Positions 18,731 to 64,000 of a stretch of DNA of 64,000 nucleotides are shown here, piece after piece. The stretch's first letter is position 1; each line of letters opens with the position of its first letter. The position numbers and the translations under genes are program-made. The stretch is from the NCBI RefSeq assembly GCF_054482595.1, contig NZ_JBTHVH010000001.1. One strand, written 5' to 3'. A model generated the notes under the pieces. The model was not told where the DNA came from. It worked only from the letters and a program-made list of their open reading frames with translations, and did not search any database. The DNA is from a plasmid.

Positions 18731-20214
18731 TGGCCAGAAGTTGCGTAACGGATCCACGTTGGCGCGAGCTGGTGGCGCTATATCGTTATGACTGGATTGC
18801 TGCCGCTGATGTTTTGTTCGGCAAAACACCTACCTGGCAGCAGGATCTGATTATTGAGTCTGTGCAGGAACAGGGTAGCAAGACATCTGTTTCGTCTGGT
18901 CACGGTACCGGGAAATCAGACATGACTTCTATCATGATCATGTTGTTCATAATCATGTATCCCGGTGCCCGCGCCATTATCGTTGCGAACAAAATTCAGC
19001 AGGTAATGACCGGTATATTCAAGTACATCAAGATAAACTGGGCTACTGCCACCAGCCGTTTTCCATGGCTTGCTGATTATTTTGTTCTGACAGAAACCGC
19101 TTTCTATGAGGTTACTGGTAAAGGTGTATGGACTGTAGTACCGAAGGGCTTTCGTCTGGGAAGTGAAGAAGCTCTCGCCGGTGAACACGCAGATCATCTT
19201 CTGTATATTATCGATGAAGCCTCCGGTGTCAGTGATAGAGCTTTCGGTATCATCACCGGTGCTCTTACCGGACAGGATAACCGCATCTTATTACTGTCAC
19301 AGCCTACACGCCCAAGCGGCTATTTCTACGATACTCATCATAAACTGGCCAAGCGTCCTGGTAACCCTGATGGCGTTTATACGGCGATCACGCTTAACAG
19401 TGAGGAATCACCGCTGGTAACGCCAGCATTTATCAAAATGAAGCTGGCGGAGTACGGCGGGCGCGATAACCCTATGTACATGATTAAGGTACGCGGCCTA
19501 TTCCCTAAATCACAGGATGGCTTCCTTCTTGGACGTGATGAGGTTGAACGTGCAACGCGGCGGAAAGTCAAGATTGCCAAAGGATGGGGCTGGCTTGCAT
19601 GTGTGGACGTTGCTGGTGGTACGGGAAGGGATAAGTCCGTTATCAATATCATGATGGTGTCCGGCCAGAGAAATAAACGCCGTGTAATCAACTATCGAAT
19701 GCTGGAATACACAGACGTTACAGAAACGCAGCTTGCCGCCAAAATTTTCGCAGAATGTAATCCTGAGCGATTCCCAAATATCACCATAGCGATAGACGGC
19801 GATGGGCTGGGTAAAGCAACAGCGGATCTGATGTACGAGTATTATGGTATTACCGTACAGCGTATACGCTGGGGTAAAAAGATGCATAGCCGTGAAGATA
19901 AGAGCCTGTACTTTGATAAACGTGCTTATGCCAACGTTCAAGCCGCAGAGGCCGTAAAATCTGGTCGTATGAGACTGGATAAGGGTAATGAAACTATTGA
20001 GGAAGCGTCGAAAATCCCTGTAGGGATTAACTCCGCAGGTCAATGGAAGGTGATGAGTAAGGAGGATATGAAGAAAAAACTCAACCTGCACTCACCAGAC
20101 CATTGGGATACATATTGTTTCGCTATGCTGGCGGATTATGTTCCCCAGGACGAAGTGCTTAGCGTCGAAGACGAAGCGCAGGTTGATGAAGCTCTGGCAT
20201 GGCTTAATGAATGA
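18730..20214 (+). CDS. pacB: PacB, terminase large subunit
   Basis: 494 aa; Walker-A-like GHGTGKS; ATGA overlap with pacA. Confidence 0.85.
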
Positions 20215-20217
20215 ACA

Positions 20218-20234
20218 TTTGCTCTAATAAATTG
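20218..20234 (+). promoter_or_regulatory. C1 operator (15/17) just after pacB stop, upstream of module A
   Basis: TTTGCTCTAATAAATTG. Confidence 0.55.
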
Positions 20235-20363
20235 TGTTTTTTAACTACCGATGTTACATTGAACCTGACCTCTTGCGCCTTGAGGCATTTTCGGTTTATG
20301 CTTATCAGGCACCTCAGTAAAACGGGTGCCGGGATTGGCCTCCCGCTTAAGTCTAAGGCGATA

Positions 20364-20387
20364 CAGACGCCGCTCGCGTCTTTTTTT
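20364..20387 (+). terminator. hairpin AGACGC-CGCTC-GCGTCT followed by T8
   Basis: Read directly; lies between an upstream target-like copy (GTCTAAGG, 20350-20357) and the c4-like RNA. Confidence 0.4.
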
Positions 20388-20417
20388 TGTATCGGCGTAC
20401 ACGCACACCTCTACAAT

Positions 20418-20497
20418 GGTGGGCTGTATGGGGCTACCTTCGGGTAGGCTGGTTACCTTGGACGCCAGTAAGGCCAACTCCGTACAGTCCACCGCCA
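20418..20497 (+). ncRNA. c4: c4-like structured antisense RNA (module A)
   Basis: 11-bp terminal stem GGTGGGCTGTA/TACAGTCCACC, internal hairpin with TTCG loop, 3' GCCA; single-stranded CCTTGGACG (20456-20464) complementary to CGTCTAAGG (20534-20542) on the downstream SD. Confidence 0.5.
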
Positions 20498-20553
20498 GCA
20501 AGATTGGTCTCTTCTGCGGTGGTTACATACCAACGTCTAAGGAGGCTGCCAAT

Positions 20554-20775
20554 ATGGCTACTATCCCTACCCCAACTCATCCTGAATTTATCTGGCGCTT
20601 TTACTCCTGCCAAAAACGTCACTATCACTTCGTTATTGCACCGACAGAAGATGAGGCACGTTCTCAGCTTCCTGACGCCCCATGTATTTTCTCTGCCCGT
20701 TTTTCCACTGATTCACGCAATTCTCTCAGTTACTGGTGCCTCCCTGTTAACGCTTCTGCTCAGGAGGGACTATGA
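20554..20775 (+). CDS. icd: icd-like small protein (73 aa), coupled to ant
   Basis: ATG with AAGGAGG SD; stop overlaps ant start (ATGA); track ORF 20326..20775 is an extension across the RNA. Confidence 0.55.
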   Translation: MATIPTPTHPEFIWRFYSCQKRHYHFVIAPTEDEARSQLPDAPCIFSARFSTDSRNSLSYWCLPVNASAQEGL

Positions 20776-21890
20776 GAACATCGTTAGTTACCCGTGAAGA
20801 GATGATCGAGGCAATTGAACAGCACACTGCCTGTATCAGTACCAGGGATATACCAGGCGTTATTGCCAACTACTTCATGATCACCAAACAACTTTACCGG
20901 AGAAAGGACAAGAACGCGGTTCACCGTATCCTGTTGTCTGATATCCGCGAATACCTGCTCGAACAGGGTCATCTGAATTACGCAACCGTCGCAGCCGAAT
21001 CACGCAAGGAGGCACACAGAATGAAAGCAACTAACGTTAAATCAGAAAAAATTCATGCACCTTCAGTTCAGGAATCGGAGCTGGTGGTTGTTCAGAATCA
21101 GTCTGATGAAATTCCCGTTCTGGAATGGCAGGGAGTGCGTGTAGTGACAACCGAGACTCTTGCTAGAGGGTATGGGACAGAAACAATCCGTATTCGCCAA
21201 AATCATCATGAGAACAAAGTACGCTTTGTTGAAGGGAAGCACTTTTTCAAAGTTGAAGGAGAATCATTGCGCGAGTTGAAGCACAGAGTAGCTTTAAACT
21301 ACTCTGTAAAAATTGCTCGCAATGTTCGCTCACTCACCCTCTGGACAGAACGCGGCGCAGCCCGCCACGCTAAAATGCTCGAAACCGATCAGGCATGGGC
21401 ATTCTTTGAAAAACTGGAAGACAGCTACTTCCGACAAAAAGAACAGCAACCGATCGCAATCCCCCAAACATTACCAGAAGCCCTACGCCTGGCTGCCGAA
21501 CTGGCTGAACAAAAGCAGCTTCTGGAACAGAAAGCCCACCAGCTAAATCAGCAGCTGGTGGCCGCCGCTCCTAAGGTCGATTTTGCCGACCGGGTATCAG
21601 TAGCTAAAGGGATCCTGATTGGGAATTTTGCAAAGGTTGTTGGACTTAAGCAAAACGCGCTGTTTGTCTGGTTACGGGAGAACGGCATCCTGATAGCGTC
21701 CGGTGGACGTAAAAATGTGCCGTTCCAGCAGTACATCAACGCGGGGTATTTCACGGTGAAAGAAGTGGTGCTGGATGATGAAGATGGCTACCAGATACGG
21801 TTGACGCCTCAATTAACGGGTAAAGGCCAGCAGTGGTTGACGCGTAAACTGCTCGATGCTGGCTTGTTAAAACCGGTGGCGGCTGAATAA
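20772..21890 (+). CDS. ant1: antirepressor Ant1 (372 aa) with in-frame internal start for Ant2 at Met84; C-terminal KilAC/ANT domain
   Basis: Size matches remembered 42/32 kDa Ant1/Ant2; AntA-like middle domain; conserved C-terminal block shared with 25550..26602. Confidence 0.7.
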   Translation: MRTSLVTREEMIEAIEQHTACISTRDIPGVIANYFMITKQLYRRKDKNAVHRILLSDIREYLLEQGHLNYATVAAESRKEAHRMKATNVKSEKIHAPSVQESELVVVQNQSDEIPVLEWQGVRVVTTETLARGYGTETIRIRQNHHENKVRFVEGKHFFKVEGESLRELKHRVALNYSVKIARNVRSLTLWTERGAARHAKMLETDQAWAFFEKLEDSYFRQKEQQPIAIPQTLPEALRLAAELAEQKQLLEQKAHQLNQQLVAAAPKVDFADRVSVAKGILIGNFAKVVGLKQNALFVWLRENGILIASGGRKNVPFQQYINAGYFTVKEVVLDDEDGYQIRLTPQLTGKGQQWLTRKLLDAGLLKPVAAE

Positions 21891-21897
21891 TGGAAGA

Positions 21898-21919
21898 ATG
21901 CCCGGTTGATGCCGGGCAT
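21898..21919 (+). terminator. hairpin ATGCCCGG-loop-CCGGGCAT after ant
   Basis: Read directly. Confidence 0.45.
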
Positions 21920-21922
21920 AAT

Positions 21923-22774
21923 TTATTGCGCGCTTTCGGGGTTGTCGTTTACTGGCTGCCCCTTCTTGGTTTTACGGCTGCGCGTAACTGATGCGGCTGA
22001 CTTAACCTTTTTCTCTTCGCGAGTGATGGCAATTTGTTTTTTTACATTTTCAATATCTGCCAGGCGATATATTTTTGCTTGCGGCCAGCGGTCGCAGATG
22101 ATCGGTTCTATGGAGTCATAAAGGCTAAATTTTGCTTTTTCGAATTCACCGTTGATGATAATTCCATCACGGAGAGTTTCATCGCAGATAAACACGCCAC
22201 ACAGTGGCACATGGTAACTAACTGATTTACCATCATTGTAGTTAGGGCTACTGGAAATGTAGTGGACGCGCAGCATTGTTTCGCTAAAGCCGTGTACGCG
22301 CATACGGAATTTTTCATCCTCCGGGTACTGCCTCATTAGCTCTTTTGTTGCTTCCAGGTTCTCTATGTATTTCGCACTGTGCTCATTGATCCCCGCGCTT
22401 TTTTGGATGCGAATGTCCTTATCAATCAGATGAATAATGCGGCCAGCGGTCATGTTGACGCTGTTCACAGCTTCTGTCTGATAAGTTGTAACCTTGCGCA
22501 CACCGCGAAGGATGTTAGGCACTGGATATAAAATAGTCTTTGGGATATTGAGGTCTGGGTACTGTTCCAGTTCCCGCGCCATTAAAGTCCATTTATCAAT
22601 TTCAGCCTGAATGCTGTCTGTTTCTTTGAACGGTAGAACGACAACCGGGCGTACAGGACGACCGTCGCTGGCGGCATCAACGTGTTGGGCGCGTGCAACA
22701 GCTTTTTTTAGAAAGAGATCCCTGAAGCTGACGAACTCCTGGTACAGTTGTTCGCCGTAGACATAATTTATCAT
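21923..22774 (-). CDS. c1: C1 repressor of lysis
   Basis: 283 aa; N-terminus MINYVYGEQLYQEFVSFRDLFLKKAVARAQ matches remembered P1 C1. Confidence 0.95.
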   Translation of the reverse strand: MINYVYGEQLYQEFVSFRDLFLKKAVARAQHVDAASDGRPVRPVVVLPFKETDSIQAEIDKWTLMARELEQYPDLNIPKTILYPVPNILRGVRKVTTYQTEAVNSVNMTAGRIIHLIDKDIRIQKSAGINEHSAKYIENLEATKELMRQYPEDEKFRMRVHGFSETMLRVHYISSSPNYNDGKSVSYHVPLCGVFICDETLRDGIIINGEFEKAKFSLYDSIEPIICDRWPQAKIYRLADIENVKKQIAITREEKKVKSAASVTRSRKTKKGQPVNDNPESAQ

Positions 22775-22868
22775 TGATCCTCCTCCAGAATTGACATGGT
22801 CAATAACGCCCGGCTGAGAAAACCGGTCATTACTGACCTATATTATAGAGGGATCAAACAAAAATAAT

Positions 22869-22885
22869 AGATTTATTAGTGCATT
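22869..22885 (-). promoter_or_regulatory. C1 operator-like site (14/17) between c1 and coi
   Basis: Reverse complement AATGCACTAATAAATCT. Confidence 0.5.
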
Positions 22886-23094
22886 TATTGTGAGTCTAAC
22901 TGGTTAGTTGTCATGAGATATTCGATTGTGTCAGTGAGGTCATCCAGGTCGTCTTGGGTGATGCGGTACTCCTGATTGGATATCTTTGAGTAGTGTTCAG
23001 CAATGGCGCGGGCAGCGTCGGTTTCGGCAGGGTCTACAGATAAAGCGTTAGAGCAATGTCTAACGTCGTCGATGGTTGGTTGAATGAAAGCCAT
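22885..23094 (-). CDS. coi: Coi, C1 inactivator
   Basis: 69 aa, directly upstream of c1 on the same strand. Confidence 0.85.
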   Translation of the reverse strand: MAFIQPTIDDVRHCSNALSVDPAETDAARAIAEHYSKISNQEYRITQDDLDDLTDTIEYLMTTNQLDSQ

Positions 23095-23332
23095 AATTAT
23101 GCCTCACTGTATTGACAACACAGAGCCCGAAGCTCTGACCTACTGTTTCACCCATGATCCATGCTGGGGTAATCTAACAACATTGCGCTGTGTGTAAGAT
23201 GAGCAATGCATAGCTGTAATGCCGTTGTATAAGGTTTCCCTGTTTGCTCATTTCCTTCTGAGCCGCTCTACAACGCTGAAGACACATTAAATAGTGAATC
23301 CAAAGTCGTATTACGTAACGGCGGCAAAACTA

Positions 23333-23349
23333 TAATTTATTAGAGCAAT
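23333..23349 (-). promoter_or_regulatory. C1 operator (16/17), Op99-type region upstream of coi
   Basis: Reverse complement ATTGCTCTAATAAATTA. Confidence 0.65.
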
Positions 23350-23415
23350 TGTCAAACAACTATGAAAAACAATCCAGTTTTTAGCTGGTGGAGTGGGATT
23401 TTTCTCTCAAAATTT

Positions 23416-23432
23416 ATTGCTCTAATAATTCT
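23416..23432 (+). promoter_or_regulatory. C1 operator (15/17)
   Basis: ATTGCTCTAATAATTCT. Confidence 0.6.
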
Positions 23433-23476
23433 TGATTTTTATGCGCAGCTGGACGTAAACTCCTCTTCGGATCTAA

Positions 23477-23510
23477 TAACTTCGTATAGCATACATTATA
23501 CGAAGTTATA
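23477..23510 (+). other. loxP: loxP recombination site
   Basis: Exact ATAACTTCGTATAGCATACATTATACGAAGTTAT. Confidence 0.97.
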
Positions 23511-23698
23511 TTAAGGGTTATTGAATATGATCAATTTACCTGTAAATCCATACAGTTCAATACTGTAGCAGGTCAAATAGTGACCACTTGATCATTTGAT
23601 CAAGGTTGCGCTACGTAAAATCTGTGAAAAATTGGCGGTGTTAGTCCTACAGATTTCGCGTAGCGCACTTAGCACCACCAATCAATCAGAGGTGAAAA

Positions 23699-23920
23699 AT
23701 GGGATATTCAACTGCTAAAGTGTCCACTCATCTTGAGCTTGAGAAAAACCGTGGTTACTGGCGGGCAAAAGGGTTTGATCGTGATAGTTGCCAACTGTCA
23801 TTATCGCGCGGTGAAGAGAAAATAGAACGCACGCGCGGTCGCTGGCGTTTCTATGACGAGAACCATAAACAGGTAAAGGCAGAGCCGATCCTGTACACTT
23901 TACTTAAAACCATTATCTGA
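23699..23920 (+). CDS. small ORF (73 aa) between loxP and cre
   Basis: ATG with GAGGTG SD; identity unknown. Confidence 0.35.
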   Translation: MGYSTAKVSTHLELEKNRGYWRAKGFDRDSCQLSLSRGEEKIERTRGRWRFYDENHKQVKAEPILYTLLKTII

Positions 23921-23927
23921 GTGTTAA

Positions 23928-24959
23928 ATGTCCAATTTACTGACCGTACACCAAAATTTGCCTGCATTACCGGTCGATGCAACGAGTGATGAGGTTCGCA
24001 AGAACCTGATGGACATGTTCAGGGATCGCCAGGCGTTTTCTGAGCATACCTGGAAAATGCTTCTGTCCGTTTGCCGGTCGTGGGCGGCATGGTGCAAGTT
24101 GAATAACCGGAAATGGTTTCCCGCAGAACCTGAAGATGTTCGCGATTATCTTCTATATCTTCAGGCGCGCGGTCTGGCAGTAAAAACTATCCAGCAACAT
24201 TTGGGCCAGCTAAACATGCTTCATCGTCGGTCCGGGCTGCCACGACCAAGTGACAGCAATGCTGTTTCACTGGTTATGCGGCGGATCCGAAAAGAAAACG
24301 TTGATGCCGGTGAACGTGCAAAACAGGCTCTAGCGTTCGAACGCACTGATTTCGACCAGGTTCGTTCACTCATGGAAAATAGCGATCGCTGCCAGGATAT
24401 ACGTAATCTGGCATTTCTGGGGATTGCTTATAACACCCTGTTACGTATAGCCGAAATTGCCAGGATCAGGGTTAAAGATATCTCACGTACTGACGGTGGG
24501 AGAATGTTAATCCATATTGGCAGAACGAAAACGCTGGTTAGCACCGCAGGTGTAGAGAAGGCACTTAGCCTGGGGGTAACTAAACTAGTCGAGCGATGGA
24601 TTTCTGTCTCTGGTGTGGCTGATGATCCGAATAACTACTTGTTTTGCCGTGTCAGAAAAAATGGCGTAGCTGCGCCATCTGCCACCAGCCAGCTATCAAC
24701 TCGCGCCCTGGAAGGGATTTTTGAAGCAACTCATCGATTGATTTACGGCGCTAAGGATGACTCTGGTCAGAGATACCTGGCCTGGTCTGGACACAGTGCC
24801 CGTGTCGGAGCCGCGCGAGATATGGCCCGCGCCGGAGTTTCAATACCGGAGATCATGCAAGCTGGTGGCTGGACCAACGTAAATATTGTCATGAACTATA
24901 TCCGTAACCTGGATAGTGAAACAGGGGCAATGGTGCGCCTGCTGGAAGATGGCGATTAG
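23928..24959 (+). CDS. cre: Cre site-specific tyrosine recombinase
   Basis: 343 aa; matches the well-known Cre sequence (MSNLLTVHQNLPALPVDATSDEVRKNLMDMF...MVRLLEDGD). Confidence 0.97.
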   Translation: MSNLLTVHQNLPALPVDATSDEVRKNLMDMFRDRQAFSEHTWKMLLSVCRSWAAWCKLNNRKWFPAEPEDVRDYLLYLQARGLAVKTIQQHLGQLNMLHRRSGLPRPSDSNAVSLVMRRIRKENVDAGERAKQALAFERTDFDQVRSLMENSDRCQDIRNLAFLGIAYNTLLRIAEIARIRVKDISRTDGGRMLIHIGRTKTLVSTAGVEKALSLGVTKLVERWISVSGVADDPNNYLFCRVRKNGVAAPSATSQLSTRALEGIFEATHRLIYGAKDDSGQRYLAWSGHSARVGAARDMARAGVSIPEIMQAGGWTNVNIVMNYIRNLDSETGAMVRLLEDGD

Positions 24960-24976
24960 CCATTAACGCGTAAATG

Positions 24977-24993
24977 ATTGCTCTAATTCTTTG
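24977..24993 (+). promoter_or_regulatory. weak C1 operator-like half site (core ATTGCTCTAAT)
   Basis: 13/17. Confidence 0.3.
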
Positions 24994-25009
24994 ATATTTA
25001 TGGCGACAT

Positions 25010-25321
25010 ATGAGAAAGAATTTCAACATCGACGGAAAATATGTAGTGCTGTCAGTGAGCACTAATATTCAGTCGCCAGCCGTCATTGTCACTGTAAAGC
25101 TGAGCGATAGAATGCCTGATATTGACTCAATATCCGTTGCGTTCCCTGTCAGAAGTATGCGTAGTGCTGAACATTTCGTGATGAATGCCACCGAGGAAGA
25201 AGCACGGCGCGGTTTTGCTAAAGTGATGTCTGAGTTTGGCGAATTTTTGGGGCACGTTGACAAAGCCCTCTCAATCAGTTCAGCAAGATCCAAAGCATTA
25301 ACAGCTTCCATGATGAAATAA
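25010..25321 (+). CDS. hypothetical protein (103 aa) downstream of cre
   Basis: Track ORF ending just before a hairpin; weak SD. Confidence 0.35.
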   Translation: MRKNFNIDGKYVVLSVSTNIQSPAVIVTVKLSDRMPDIDSISVAFPVRSMRSAEHFVMNATEEEARRGFAKVMSEFGEFLGHVDKALSISSARSKALTASMMK

Positions 25322-25326
25322 AAAAA

Positions 25327-25345
25327 GCCTGGCAAGGAGCCAGGC
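25327..25345 (-). terminator. hairpin GCCTGGC-AAGGA-GCCAGGC followed by a U-run on the minus strand; terminator for module B
   Basis: Read directly; A7 precedes it on the plus strand. Confidence 0.45.
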
Positions 25346-25549
25346 TGCACAAAAGAGCGGGTTTGTATTCCGCATCCAATCAATCAAGAAGGAGTATAGC
25401 ACACAGGTACTGACGTGAAAAAATATGATTCGCGATAAACAAAATACCTATCATTGCTCTAATTGAGCCGCAGTTTTTGTCAACTACGAAGACGTGGCCA
25501 TTACCTACTCCTTTGAAATCATTGGCGACCATTAGGCCGCCTTTTTTAA

Positions 25550-26602
25550 TCATTCAGCCGCCACCGGTTTTAACAAGCCAGCATCAAGTAGCTTGCGAGT
25601 CAACCACTGCTGGCCTTTACCCGTTAATTGGGGCGTCAGCCGTATCTGGTAGCCATTTTCATCATCCAGCACCACTTCTTTCACCGTGAAATACCCGGCG
25701 TTGATGTACTGTTGGCGCGGTACGTTTTTGCGCGCACCAAAAGCCATGAGAATGCCGTTCTGGCGCAACCATGAGAAAAGGGCGTTTTGCTTCAGTCCAA
25801 CGACCTTTGCAAAGTTCCCGATCAGGATTCCATTAGCCACTGATACCCGAACGGCAAAATCGACTTTAGGGGCTGCGGCCACCAGCTGCTGATTTAGCTG
25901 GTGGGCTTTCTGTTCCAGAAGTTGCTTTTGTTCAGCCAGCTCGGCAGCCAGGCGCAGAGCTTCGGGGAGTGTTTGGGGGAGCACTGGAGAAGCAGTGTTA
26001 GCCTGCTGCAATTCCTCCAGTTTGTCGATCAGCGAACGGCGGACCGCTTTTGACTCGCGCGCGGCAACTCGCAGGGCTTGTTTGTAGGTCATGGAGATAG
26101 TTTCAGATGTTGTGTTGTTTAATTTTTGCACTACGAAAATTTCGTAGTACTCACCATCCAGTTCATCCTTAACTCTGGCAATAAAATCATTATTGCGAAC
26201 TGGTTTTTCGCTGCATAATTTCCGCGCTTCATTGACCATCTTCAACAATGTTTGGCTGTCTATTGTGTCGCCGCTGTTGGGGATAACATTCACGGCTGGT
26301 GCAGTTGTTCCCAAAGACTTCGTAACTACAGCGTCTGGTTTGCTTGCTTTCATTCTGTGTGCCTCCTTGCGTGTTTCGGCTGCGACGGTTGCGTAATTCA
26401 GATGCCCCTGTTCGAGCAGGTATTCACGGATATCGGTTAGCAGAATGCGGTGAACCGCGTGTTTGTCCTTTCTCCGGTAAAGTTGTTTGGTGATCATGAA
26501 GTAGTTGGCAATAACGCCTGGTATATCCCTGGTACTGATACAGGCAGTGTGCTGTTCAATTGCCTCGATCATCTCTTCACGGGTGACTAATGACGTTCTC
26601 AT
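25550..26602 (-). CDS. antirepressor-like protein, paralog of Ant1 with a different central domain (350 aa)
   Basis: First about 85 aa and last about 150 aa near-identical to 20772..21890; middle unrelated. Confidence 0.65.
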   Translation of the reverse strand: MRTSLVTREEMIEAIEQHTACISTRDIPGVIANYFMITKQLYRRKDKHAVHRILLTDIREYLLEQGHLNYATVAAETRKEAHRMKASKPDAVVTKSLGTTAPAVNVIPNSGDTIDSQTLLKMVNEARKLCSEKPVRNNDFIARVKDELDGEYYEIFVVQKLNNTTSETISMTYKQALRVAARESKAVRRSLIDKLEELQQANTASPVLPQTLPEALRLAAELAEQKQLLEQKAHQLNQQLVAAAPKVDFAVRVSVANGILIGNFAKVVGLKQNALFSWLRQNGILMAFGARKNVPRQQYINAGYFTVKEVVLDDENGYQIRLTPQLTGKGQQWLTRKLLDAGLLKPVAAE

Positions 26603-26820
26603 AGTCCCTCCTGAGCAGAAGCGTTAACAGGGAGGCACCAGTAACTGAGAGAATTGCGCAAATCGGTAGAAAAGCGGGCAGAGAAAATACAGGGAGCATC
26701 CGGAAGCTGAGAACGTGCCTCATCTTCTGTTGGTGCGATAACGAAGTGATAGTGACGTTTCTGGCAGGAGTAAAAGCGCCAGATAAATTCAGGGCGTGCG
26801 CAAGGATTGGCATTAACCAT
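26599..26820 (-). CDS. icd-like small protein (73 aa), paralog of 20554..20775
   Basis: PEFIWRFYSCQKRHYHFVIAPTEDEARSQLPDAPCIFSARFSTD block shared; ATGA overlap with downstream gene. Confidence 0.55.
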   Translation of the reverse strand: MVNANPCARPEFIWRFYSCQKRHYHFVIAPTEDEARSQLPDAPCIFSARFSTDLRNSLSYWCLPVNASAQEGL

Positions 26821-26867
26821 AGTTACGGCCTCATGTACAGGTTTAACAACCTGCTATCCGCTGCTAA

Positions 26868-26947
26868 ACGGGTGGCAGGACGTGACGGGGTTAGCAGACT
26901 GGCGTACATGAAACCAGCAGGCCGAAGCCTCCCCATCACGCCCCACC
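26868..26947 (-). ncRNA. c4-like structured antisense RNA (module B), diverged from module A
   Basis: Aligns to the module A RNA with compensatory stem changes; recognition TCATGTAC complementary to GTACATGA on the icd-B SD (plus 26831-26838). Confidence 0.45.
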
Positions 26948-27121
26948 ATAATTCGGGCGTAACGTGGTTTTACGGACACAAAAATACCGCAATATCGGAT
27001 ATCTGCGGTTGTCCGCATGTACATTCAGGCTGCTAAACCCGGTCGCAGAATTTGCTACGACGGCGGAACTATAAGCCTGAATGACAGGAAGATCAATAGT
27101 CTGGCGTTCAATGGTAGTATT

Positions 27122-27154
27122 TTTGCTCCAATAAATCAAATCTATTAGAGCAAT
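27122..27154. promoter_or_regulatory. pair of C1 operator-like sites in tail-to-tail arrangement (13/17 and 16/17) between module B and the MBL gene
   Basis: TTTGCTCCAATAAATCA and reverse complement ATTGCTCTAATAGATTT. Confidence 0.55.
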
Positions 27155-27296
27155 AAATTATTATCCCAAGCTTTACAGTGCGCTGTAAAATTCAAACCTT
27201 CGGGTCAGTGGCGGAATCGTATTTCACTCACGGAATGAGTATTATTAGTTTTGTCATACATAGCTAGGTAATGAATCACTTGAAGGAACTACGAAC

Positions 27297-28097
27297 ATGT
27301 CCGTGACCATTAGCGTCCTGCTGGAAAACAGACTTAAGCTTGGAGTTAAAAACTCGCTGCGTGCTAAAGCAGGACTTAGTCTGTTGATACAGGATGAAAA
27401 CGATTCAATCCTGTTTGATACTGGGCCTGATGATAGCTTCATGTATAACGCAGGTTTAATGGGGGTCGATTTGACAAAACTGACCGCAGTTGTACTTTCC
27501 CATGGTCACTATGACCACTGCGGAGGTGTTCCGTGGATACCAGACACATGCAGGATAATATGCCATCCTATGGTGTCGGATGAGCGCTATTCGGCAATCA
27601 GGTTTTTAGGCTATACCGCCAGAATAAAAAAATTATCATTACATAATGATTTTTCACGTTTCCGCATGGAATACAGCAACACACCATTGCATATCAGTGA
27701 GCGTTTTATGTGGTCAGGAGAGATCCCTGTTGCCAGGCCACGCGCTTACGGTGTTATCGGGTGTAAGAATACGAAAGAAGATTACGTAAAAGATGAGGGG
27801 GTTTTAATTTATAAATCAGACTATGGGTTGATCATTTTTATCGGTTGTGGTCATTGCGGGGTAATTGATATTGTGCGCCACTGCCAAAATATAACCGGGA
27901 TAAATCATATTCATGCAATTTTTGGTGGTCTTCATCTGCGCTGTGCGTCCCCTCTTATGCTCTGGAAGGTGAGACAGTTCTTACGCCTTCATAAACCAGA
28001 TAAGATAATGGGGTGTCATTGTACTGGCAAATGGGGACGCTTGTGGTTACCGGAATCAACCTCTCCGGCAACAGGTGATGTTTATGTTCTTGGATAG
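27297..28097 (+). CDS. MBL-fold metallo-hydrolase
   Basis: HGHYDHCGG (HxHxDH), GCGHCG, GGLHL motifs in order; AAGGAA SD; AT-rich by eye. Confidence 0.65.
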   Translation: MSVTISVLLENRLKLGVKNSLRAKAGLSLLIQDENDSILFDTGPDDSFMYNAGLMGVDLTKLTAVVLSHGHYDHCGGVPWIPDTCRIICHPMVSDERYSAIRFLGYTARIKKLSLHNDFSRFRMEYSNTPLHISERFMWSGEIPVARPRAYGVIGCKNTKEDYVKDEGVLIYKSDYGLIIFIGCGHCGVIDIVRHCQNITGINHIHAIFGGLHLRCASPLMLWKVRQFLRLHKPDKIMGCHCTGKWGRLWLPESTSPATGDVYVLG

Positions 28098-28414: not shown

Positions 28415-29056
28415 ATGGATAAGAAAATATGCGTTGTTTCGATGAGCGTCGGCAAACCGGCGTCAATGACTGCTGCATGGATCAATAACGAGCTGATAAT
28501 GGCTGAGCGGACCAGCTACCCTGAACGCCGCCGCGATATGGAACTCCAGCTGCTGCGCGAATTGCGAGAAAAAGAGGAAAAGGGGTTTATCGTGCTGGTG
28601 GAAGAGGAAAACAGCTTTATTACTGGTCGAGTTGGCCAGCGTGTAAGGTTGCGCGATCCCTTCATGAACGGCAGGCCGGTACTAATTGAGGCAATGCAGA
28701 TTTATAAGGAGTTGGAACGCCAGAAAGCAATCAAGTTACCGCGCAAGGAATCCGGCAAATACATCCTCCACCAAAGCATCTTCGATTCCGAACACGATAA
28801 AAAAGGCGATGAATTTTTCAACATCAACTGGAGCGAAATAACGACAGAGCATGTTCTGACGTTACTATGTTGCTTTGCGACGGAATACAACAACGTTGCC
28901 AGCGCCGACTACATCAGGGCAATGGCTGGAGAAGTTGAGGCACGCCAGGAACCATCGTTACTAAGCCCTCTGATTAACATAATTCGCAGAACCCAAACAC
29001 TGGCGCAAAAACAAGTACCACAAGGGGAATTGACGGGTAAAGGTAATTATCTCTGA
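28415..29056 (+). CDS. hypothetical protein (213 aa from MDKK)
   Basis: ATG at 28415 with GGGGG SD; track ORF starts at TTG 28361; position corresponds to P1 mat (unverified). Confidence 0.4.
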   Translation: MDKKICVVSMSVGKPASMTAAWINNELIMAERTSYPERRRDMELQLLRELREKEEKGFIVLVEEENSFITGRVGQRVRLRDPFMNGRPVLIEAMQIYKELERQKAIKLPRKESGKYILHQSIFDSEHDKKGDEFFNINWSEITTEHVLTLLCCFATEYNNVASADYIRAMAGEVEARQEPSLLSPLINIIRRTQTLAQKQVPQGELTGKGNYL

Positions 29057-29095
29057 AAGATGCCCGGCGATAGACCGGGCAAAAGGGCGGAAAGT

Positions 29096-40360: not shown

Positions 40361-40377
40361 TATTGCTCTAATCATTT
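40361..40377 (+). promoter_or_regulatory. C1 operator (15/17) upstream of ssb
   Basis: ATTGCTCTAATCATTTT. Confidence 0.55.
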
Positions 40378-40397
40378 TATTTTATTAGGTAAGATAA

Positions 40398-63879: not shown

Positions 63880-64000
63880 CCTTGCTCCTTAATTCAAAGA
63901 GAAAAACTAAAGCCCAGAAGGGAAGCCAAAGAACTTGAGGATTGGTTAAACGTGCTGTGCAATGCGAAGGTCATTGGGAATGACTTAAATTCCGTAACCT

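Follow-up and report, generated by a model that had tools for sequence, protein, structure and literature searches.

P1 and P7 c4 is a trans-acting repressor that sets heteroimmunity (PMC8546580, PMC12197685), and the two phages are heteroimmune because of c4 (PMC12197685, PMC6906374). The P1 record and a title cited in PMC8546580 give P1 c4 as a 77-base RNA, and it was originally proposed that two sites, a1 and b1, compete with a2 and b2 for c4, as restated in the supplement of PMC2864571. In the literature searched only the P1 and P7 c4 specificities are described; the classic c4, P1 genome and D6 genome papers, which lie outside that scope, may discuss allele diversity. The 5' end of c4 is processed by RNase P. 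In this work we analysed a plasmid stretch of 64,000 nucleotides (nt) (NCBI RefSeq assembly GCF_054482595.1, contig NZ_JBTHVH010000001.1; hereafter the window), a P1-like phage-plasmid by the content and order of its open reading frames (ORFs), and examined in it module B, a minus-strand cassette of a c4 antisense RNA, an icd gene and an ant gene.

A comparable architecture is found in the isrK-C4-antirepressor cassettes of Stx-converting and Gifsy-1 lambdoid prophages (IsrK-orf45-AnrP, PMC4825925), and the layout common to these and module B consists of a leader with a1 and b1 and a terminator, an RNA with the C4 fold, a2 and b2 at a ribosome-binding site, and a small ORF coupled to the antirepressor gene. 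When IsrK of Gifsy-1 is supplied in trans, it binds the intervening RNA and thereby activates the antirepressor downstream, and a species of ~80 nt is processed from that RNA. The same study took the middle RNA to be an ORF (orf45) and gave IsrK the part of activator (PMC4825925); the P1 middle RNA, by contrast, is the c4 repressor. The isrK-type scaffold, which includes the other cassette of our window (module A), matches module B at no more than ~78% of the sequence and differs from it in a' and b'. Extra icd-ant1/2 genes have been reported in P1-like plasmids, namely in region RD-1 of pSvP1 (the res-mod site), with an ant gene between pacB and c1 in pTZ20_1P and RCS47 (PMC6906374), and a second c4/icd region is present in the D6-like pYU39_89 (PMC6799933). 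These earlier reports deal with the same sites (res-mod region and pacB-c1 gap) and the same genes as here, as gene lists without analysis of the RNA, the recognition sequences or their targets. In phage P22 the small antisense RNA sar (immI) silences the antirepressor gene ant in the prophage, as c4 does; sar is, however, a true cis-antisense transcript over the ant ribosome-binding site, with no two-element short-site code and no homology to c4.

The immI region of P1 and P7 lies between sim and kilA-repL, whereas module B adjoins cra/cre and co-exists with other cassettes in its replicon. Over 20200-27300, the part of the window that holds both cassettes, the identity to E. coli plasmid pYZMc17-1_100k (NZ_CP123256.1) is 99.6%. 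Module B aligns position for position with annotated P1/P7 immI, from Oc4/Op51 and P51b through a1, b1, the hairpin, the 77-nt c4, a2 and b2 to icd and ant. Its parts are as follows, in the order of transcription.

27138-27154, minus strand: C1-operator-like site ATTGCTCTAATAGATTT, one mismatch to the consensus, aligned with annotated P1 Oc4 (Op51)
27068-27096, minus strand: sigma-70 promoter-like site from the promoter scan (TTGATC, 17 nt, TATAGT), homologous to P1 promoter P1c4 (P51b)
27022-27074, minus strand: c4-a1b1 leader motif with two hairpins (Rfam RF03163, 55.5 bits against a gathering score of 46.7)
27030-27036, minus strand: a1, UUAGCAG, loop of the second leader hairpin, paired with a' in 59 of the 59 modules compared below
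27015-27022, minus strand: b1, GUACAUGC, upstream complement of the c4 b' loop, b1-b' paired in 59/59 modules
26974-27014, minus strand: hairpin followed by a U-run, terminator-like (RNAfold, -17.6 kcal/mol)
26871-26947, minus strand: c4-B antisense RNA, predicted 77-nt mature form (Rfam RF01695; minimum free energy (MFE) -44.9 kcal/mol)
26904-26911, minus strand: b' of c4-B, UCAUGUAC, loop of hairpin 2
26891-26897, minus strand: a' of c4-B, CUGCUAA, in the single-stranded junction
26861-26867, minus strand: a2, UUAGCAG, in the icd leader, a'-a2 paired in 59/59 modules
26831-26838, minus strand: b2, GUACAUGA, overlapping the icd Shine-Dalgarno sequence GAGG (26829-26832), cognate duplex -12.0 kcal/mol
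26599-26820, minus strand: icd-B, 73-amino-acid (aa) Icd-like cell-division inhibitor (NCBIfam NF033153, 49.8 bits against a cutoff of 25)
25550-26602, minus strand: ant-B, 350-aa antirepressor homologous to P1/P7 Ant1 (ORF list and alignment)

The module B cassette is complete and no part of it looks decayed. The Rfam RF01695 match of c4-B extends over 26868-26953 (minus strand) with 71.7 bits against a gathering score of 45, covering model positions 1-87 of 87, and its mature ends were set by homology with the 77-nt P1 RNA. Covariance-model alignment and independent MFE folding both give a long closing helix around two hairpins, in which b' occupies a 9-nt loop and a' is left single-stranded in the 3' junction. 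The P1 counterpart of the promoter is annotated with -35 TTGACC and -10 TATAGT, and the -10 element is almost invariant across the 59 modules. The C1 operator and the P51b promoter are recognised here at the level of sequence only, and C1 binding is putative. A simple terminator scan made no call at the module B leader hairpin (26974-27014), because the loop is too long for the rules of the scan; the hairpin and U-run together with the a1b1 motif are a predicted IsrK-like short-RNA unit. The GAGG Shine-Dalgarno sequence is placed 8 nt upstream of the icd-B ATG at 26820, the product is 81% identical to P1 Icd, and the icd-B stop overlaps the ant start (ATGA). Ant-B was aligned along its length with P1/P7 Ant1, the C-terminal ~150 aa being near-identical, and its counterpart in the near-identical plasmid is annotated as a KilAC-domain antirepressor. 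The identity of Ant rests on this alignment and on the RefSeq annotation, since NCBIfam gave no family for either Ant-A or Ant-B.

When the c4 RNAs are compared base by base, P7 c4 has 73 of its 77 bases in common with c4-B and all 4 differences fall in the b' loop, while P1 c4 has 71 of 77 in common (6 differences). The alleles are b' UCACUAAC with a' CUGUCAA in P1, b' UCACAAUC with a' CUGCUAA in P7, and b' UCAUGUAC with a' CUGCUAA (identical to that of P7) in module B, and in each of the three b1 and b2 complement their own b' and a1 and a2 their own a'. Since all 4 differences from P7 c4 are in the b' loop, the folding and processing determinants of c4-B should be unchanged, and processing of c4-B to 77 nt is predicted from its identity to P7 c4 outside these loop bases. 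Judged by this alignment, module B is a new specificity allele of the known P1/P7 immI type. Because its b' differs from the P1, P7 and module A alleles and b1 and b2 have changed along with it, module B is expected to form a separate lock-and-key circuit.

An earlier annotation of this DNA made from the letters and ORFs without database searches (the sequence-only reading) had described a second c4-like RNA with its own recognition sequence and a matching target. The structural alignment of the two window RNAs bears out the stem changes that it noted in hairpin 1 (CUACC-UUCG-GGUAG in A, AGGC-UUCG-GCCU in B), and the recognition sequences do differ, the hairpin 2 loop being UUACCUUGGACG in A and UUUCAUGUACG in B. 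The match in the module's own target was also read correctly, with GUACAUGA at 26831-26838 over GAGG in the minus-strand reading, as was the upstream copy GUACAUGC at 27015-27022 that is followed by the hairpin and U-run (26974-27014). Its term 'c4-like' is right in that this is a genuine C4-family RNA but too weak, for module B has the P1/P7 c4 scaffold itself; the span proposed for the RNA was 26868-26947, and the mature RNA by P1 homology is 26871-26947. The claimed covariation of antisense and target between the modules holds for the b element; the a element, which had been missed, also differs between A (a' GGCCAA, a1 UUGGCC, a2 UUGGUC) and B (a' CUGCUAA, a1 and a2 UUAGCAG). The comparison drawn with the P1 versus P7 specificity difference proved exact, since the scaffold is the same and B adds a third b' allele to it.

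To examine whether the covariation is real, a viral contig collection was searched with the P1/P7/B scaffold as the pattern and with b' and a' unconstrained, and 117 loci were found. These loci contain seven b' alleles (UCACAAUC, UCACUAAC, UCAUGUAC, UCGUAAGU, UCAUUCGU, UCACAAGU and UCUUGAAC) and two a' alleles, and five of the b' alleles are found with both a' alleles. In an alignment of 59 distinct full P1-backbone modules, b'-b2 and a'-a2 were paired in 885 of 885 cells and a1-a' and b1-b' in 826 of 826. Changes on both sides were observed in six of the eight b'-b2 pairs and in two a'-a2 pairs (eight in total), and likewise in 6/7 b1-b' pairs. As a control, sliding the partner by 1-3 columns reduced pairing to 27-48% and left almost no compensatory changes. 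Variation is concentrated in the recognition elements, with a mean entropy of 0.58 in the six recognition blocks versus 0.09 elsewhere (P = 2e-9). This argues that pairing of b' and a' with their targets is under selection. An argument from chance based on the bare 8-mer GTACATGA was dropped, because its 6 copies in the window against 1.6 expected do not make it significantly rare; the 8-mer match within module B is non-random because three copies sit at the positions of annotated P1 b1, b' and b2 and because of the family-wide covariation. The targets of the B allele are quasi-palindromic, b1 containing AUGUACAU (27014-27023, minus strand) and b2 containing UGUACA (26831-26838, minus strand), so b1, b2 and b' could self-pair or pair mutually.

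Predicted duplex energies were used to compare the specificities. Cognate element duplexes come to -21 to -24 kcal/mol and non-cognate ones to -5 to -13 kcal/mol. Cross-pairing of A with B is predicted at -7 kcal/mol, and because it is this weak two hetero-specific circuits are the natural reading. The values for B with P7 (-12.5 and -10.9 kcal/mol) fall in the same range as those for P1 with P7 (-10.8 and -12.0 kcal/mol). From complementarity and the analogy with P1 and P7, the A and B cassettes would very likely be orthogonal; for B and a P7-type c4 the same is likely but, because of their common a', less certain than for A and B. A natural case from the viral contigs bears on action in trans: in genome 2565956613, the c4 of one cassette (L033, contig 2565956613_000015) has b' UCAUUCGU, which mismatches its own b2 GUUAGUGA, and its a2 is UUAGCAG; a second cassette of the same genome (L032, contig 2565956613_000004, next to cre) has a c4 with UCACUAAC and CUGCUAA, which matches the a2 and b2 of L033. 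This looks like a natural trans wiring between cassettes. Together, the duplex energies and this pair point to probable trans repression by c4-B with heteroimmunity specificity.

Reading from the observed parts, the homology with P1 and P7 and the covariation, we propose the following for RNA processing, trans repression, orthogonality and ecological role. The C1-operator-flanked promoter would give a transcript consisting of the leader with the decoys a1 and b1 and the terminator-like hairpin, the 77-nt c4, a2, b2, and icd coupled to ant. In processed c4-B, the loop b' (UCAUGUAC) would bind b2, which covers the icd ribosome-binding site, and the single-stranded a' (CUGCUAA) would bind a2, and this pairing would block icd translation and so turn off expression of the coupled antirepressor; Ant that is not blocked would inactivate the C1 repressor. 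c4-B should then silence only those ant cassettes that have the same code, and ant-B should escape c4 RNAs of other codes. Each extra cassette would thus widen both the range of relatives to which the prophage is immune and the range of lysogens into which the phage can break. A decoy role for the leader fits the finding that Gifsy-1 IsrK in trans activates its antirepressor via the intervening RNA; this link between IsrK and the leader decoys is one that we infer.

Module A lies on the plus strand of the window and has the following parts.

20218-20234, plus strand: C1-operator-like site TTTGCTCTAATAAATTG, 2 mismatches to the consensus
20309-20386, plus strand: leader, an IsrK-type RNA with an intrinsic terminator (Rfam RF01394, 60 bits; also c4-a1b1 at 20.5 bits)
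20335-20340, plus strand: a1, UUGGCC, within the leader
20351-20358, plus strand: b1, GUCUAAGG, within the leader
20418-20493, plus strand: c4-A antisense RNA (Rfam RF01695 match 20412-20499, 75.9 bits; fold -40.1 kcal/mol)
20456-20464, plus strand: b' of c4-A, CCUUGGACG; a' GGCCAA is at 20472-20477
20504-20509, plus strand: a2, UUGGUC; cognate duplexes of the module A target pair are -9.2 and -14.5 kcal/mol
20534-20542, plus strand: b2, CGUCUAAGG, abutting the Shine-Dalgarno sequence AGGAGG
20554-21890, plus strand: payload, icd-A (20554-20775) and ant-A (20772-21890)

Modules A and B are 94% identical over 20581-21030 (module B region 26345-26793), a segment that starts near codon 10 of icd and runs into the 5' part of ant, whereas the RNA cassette that precedes the module A payload belongs to a different lineage from that of module B; the regulatory RNA unit therefore seems to be swapped as a block while the payload behind it is shared. 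In its central part Ant-A is unlike both Ant-B and the Ant of P1 and P7. On the isrK-type scaffold three codes were found, in module A, in Stx2 phage F039 and in the pacB-c1 cassette of RCS47, each matched to itself at four target sites. Cross-talk of module A with the F039 cassette was considered and rejected, as a' and b' differ. Within P1-like contigs the A scaffold is monomorphic (32 copies of one allele). In one contig (L135, 1-2700) module A is duplicated in tandem (period 1,566 bp, 97% identity), giving two c4-A genes of the same code.

The leaders of the two lineages are also related. The module B leader aligns to the isrK model over its full length (26980-27061, minus strand; E 2e-9), but its 46.3 bits miss the gathering threshold of 50 for IsrK (Rfam RF01394), and P1's own leader (L001, 2905-2986, minus strand) likewise aligns full length with 35.1 bits, under the threshold of 50. 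By these scores the module B leader resembles IsrK without formal membership of the family. Since the module B and P1 leaders align full length to isrK and the module A leader matches both models, the P1 a1b1 leader and IsrK seem to be one and the same element. In Gifsy-1, the 'orf45' region, from which the ~80-nt RNA is processed, is probably a C4 RNA. The homology of leader and IsrK would tie the unexplained P1 a1/b1 sites to the experimentally studied IsrK activator of Gifsy-1.

The sequence-only reading had predicted two hetero-specific circuits in one genome. Complementarity and the P1/P7 analogy support these two, but the number is probably an undercount: the near-identical plasmid has three C4 genes, one in each of modules A and B and a third in a P7-type cassette that occupies the canonical site. 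Collinearity between the window and this plasmid extends as far as window position 64000, the last base, which aligns with plasmid position 4755; by comparison with this plasmid, a third cassette in the source genome would therefore lie ~3 kb beyond the window. The survey of P1-like elements for dual modules, which the same reading suggested, turned up 15 viral contigs with at least two cassettes. Five c4 cassettes were found in IMGVR_UViG_2703718869_000013 (97 kb; L083-L086), which is either one replicon or an assembly of two. The viral contigs have cassettes at the canonical site, next to cra/cre, in the pacB-c1 gap and near the darB 5' end. The fourth of these sites, near the darB 5' end (e.g., L074, L110 and L116), is empty in our window. 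Among 5,426 complete E. coli genomes, 535 (~10%) have a P1-type c4 leader region, with 664 places in total, up to 5 per genome, and 655 of them on plasmids. In many E. coli phage-plasmids the cassettes form stacks of three to five on a single plasmid.

The reading that we consider highly probable is that the P1-like phage-plasmid has in module B an additional immI-type cassette, one that is complete and functional. Several points weigh against this reading or limit its reach. Module B and the third, P7-type cassette found in the near-identical plasmid have one a' in common, which may allow partial cross-talk by way of the a element. In IMGVR_UViG_2703718869_000013 two cassettes have b' UCAUGUAC in common and differ only in a', and such a contig, with the same b' and a different a' in its two cassettes, leaves specificity to b', a' or both. 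The search pattern fixed 32 bases within c4, so the invariance of the c4 scaffold is partly by construction, the partner sites being outside the pattern and free to vary. Duplicate codes within a contig were observed once versus 3.7 expected (P about 0.08), which is a trend only; the one instance is the recent tandem duplication of module A, and linkage between alleles and insertion sites confounds the test of co-residence. For these reasons avoidance of duplicate codes was not used as evidence. Moreover, whatever is said here on the function of module B draws wholly on homology and complementarity.

The shared a' raises the question of whether the module B c4 and the canonical P7-type c4 cross-repress each other, which would make the cassette a partly redundant back-up with no new specificity. 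The a', a1 and a2 elements are identical between the two cassettes, the a'-a2 duplex is fully cognate at -9.3 kcal/mol, and several contigs have cassette pairs that differ only in b'. It is b2, however, and not a2, that covers the ribosome-binding site, and the b duplex of B with P7 is worth only -1.6 to -3.2 kcal/mol, so that the summed energy equals that of the heteroimmune pair P1 and P7; moreover, a b element that did not discriminate would hardly explain why seven b' alleles each stay in register at three sites. We therefore regard cross-repression as unlikely. A different explanation of the same covariation is that the pairings serve mainly the cis folding of the precursor (processing, attenuation, icd translation) and that the alleles are structure-locked drift. 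All six elements are on one transcript, the leader has a terminator-like hairpin, and the homologous Gifsy-1 isrK-orf45 RNA is reported to take alternative intramolecular structures (PMC4825925). Against this, P1/P7 c4 is described as a trans-acting determinant of heteroimmunity (PMC8546580, PMC12197685), drift would neither focus variation on 8 + 2 positions of a nearly invariant region of ~300 nt nor reassort five b' alleles with both a' alleles, and the case of L033 and L032 requires action in trans. As a main explanation cis folding is quite improbable, and cis folding and trans recognition are compatible with each other.

Module B could also be an inert recombination remnant, a duplicated immI fragment with no present function, given that it is without the sim and kilA-repL genes that flank canonical immI and is located in the known variable region RD-1, at the res-mod site (PMC6906374). 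Yet the operator, promoter, leader, c4, targets, 73-aa icd and 350-aa ant are all intact, and the regulatory region is found at 100% identity in 12 complete E. coli plasmids. Both b1 and b2 match the private b' allele, a fit that requires continued selection on module B, and we give the idea of a remnant hardly any weight. The reading with the best support is the immI mechanism of P1 working with another key.

It is quite possible, although we stop short of calling it probable, that P1-like phage-plasmids carry a population-wide two-element RNA address code. This code would comprise at least 7 b' and 2 a' alleles on a nearly invariant scaffold, with more on the isrK-type scaffold, written in triplicate (decoy a1b1, antisense a'b', operator a2b2), reassorted, and stacked at up to 4-5 sites per replicon; the c4 set of an element would define the relatives that it excludes and the lysogens that it can induce. 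If so, the address code would be an RNA-based immunity-group system under diversifying selection in which occasional cassettes are trans-wired to the c4 of another, and it would go well beyond the P1 and P7 specificities of the searched literature. What may be new is the wider pattern of many alleles on one scaffold, their upkeep in triplicate, their reassortment and their stacking to five per replicon. P1-like phage-plasmids are common in E. coli, and P1-like elements are recognised carriers of resistance genes (PMC6906374). Because the main repressor C1 is conserved, superinfection and induction among relatives should depend largely on the c4/ant code. If the cassettes are orthogonal, the immunity group of a plasmid would be predictable from the c4 alleles in its sequence, and a natural set of orthogonal antisense regulators would be available in the near-invariant scaffold and its programmable loop of 4-6 nt.

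Among the sequence-level features by which the C4 family and P1/P7 immI are recognised, module B departs in location alone, since it does not lie at the canonical immI position between the sim genes and kilA-repL. The ORF order of the window is pacA, pacB, an icd-ant pair, c1, coi, cre, cra, the second icd-ant pair on the opposite strand, an MBL-fold gene, mat and darB, and module B sits between cra (25010-25321) and the MBL-fold gene (27297-28097, plus strand), where P1 has res-mod. The MBL-fold hydrolase gene (27297-28097, plus strand) is divergent from the neighbouring module B. The whole arrangement from A to B is shared by 43 plasmids, which hold at least 80% of 20200-27300. At the junction near 29052-29084 the window lacks a SIR2-family gene that pYZMc17-1_100k has as an extra, located after mat and ahead of the small ORFs that precede darB. 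When the window was searched for the C1 operator consensus with up to 3 mismatches, 12 matches were found versus 0.29 expected; examples of such C1-operator-like sites are at 7177-7193, 23333-23349, 23416-23432 and 40362-40378. The 12 sites are consistent with a dispersed C1 regulon of the P1 type.

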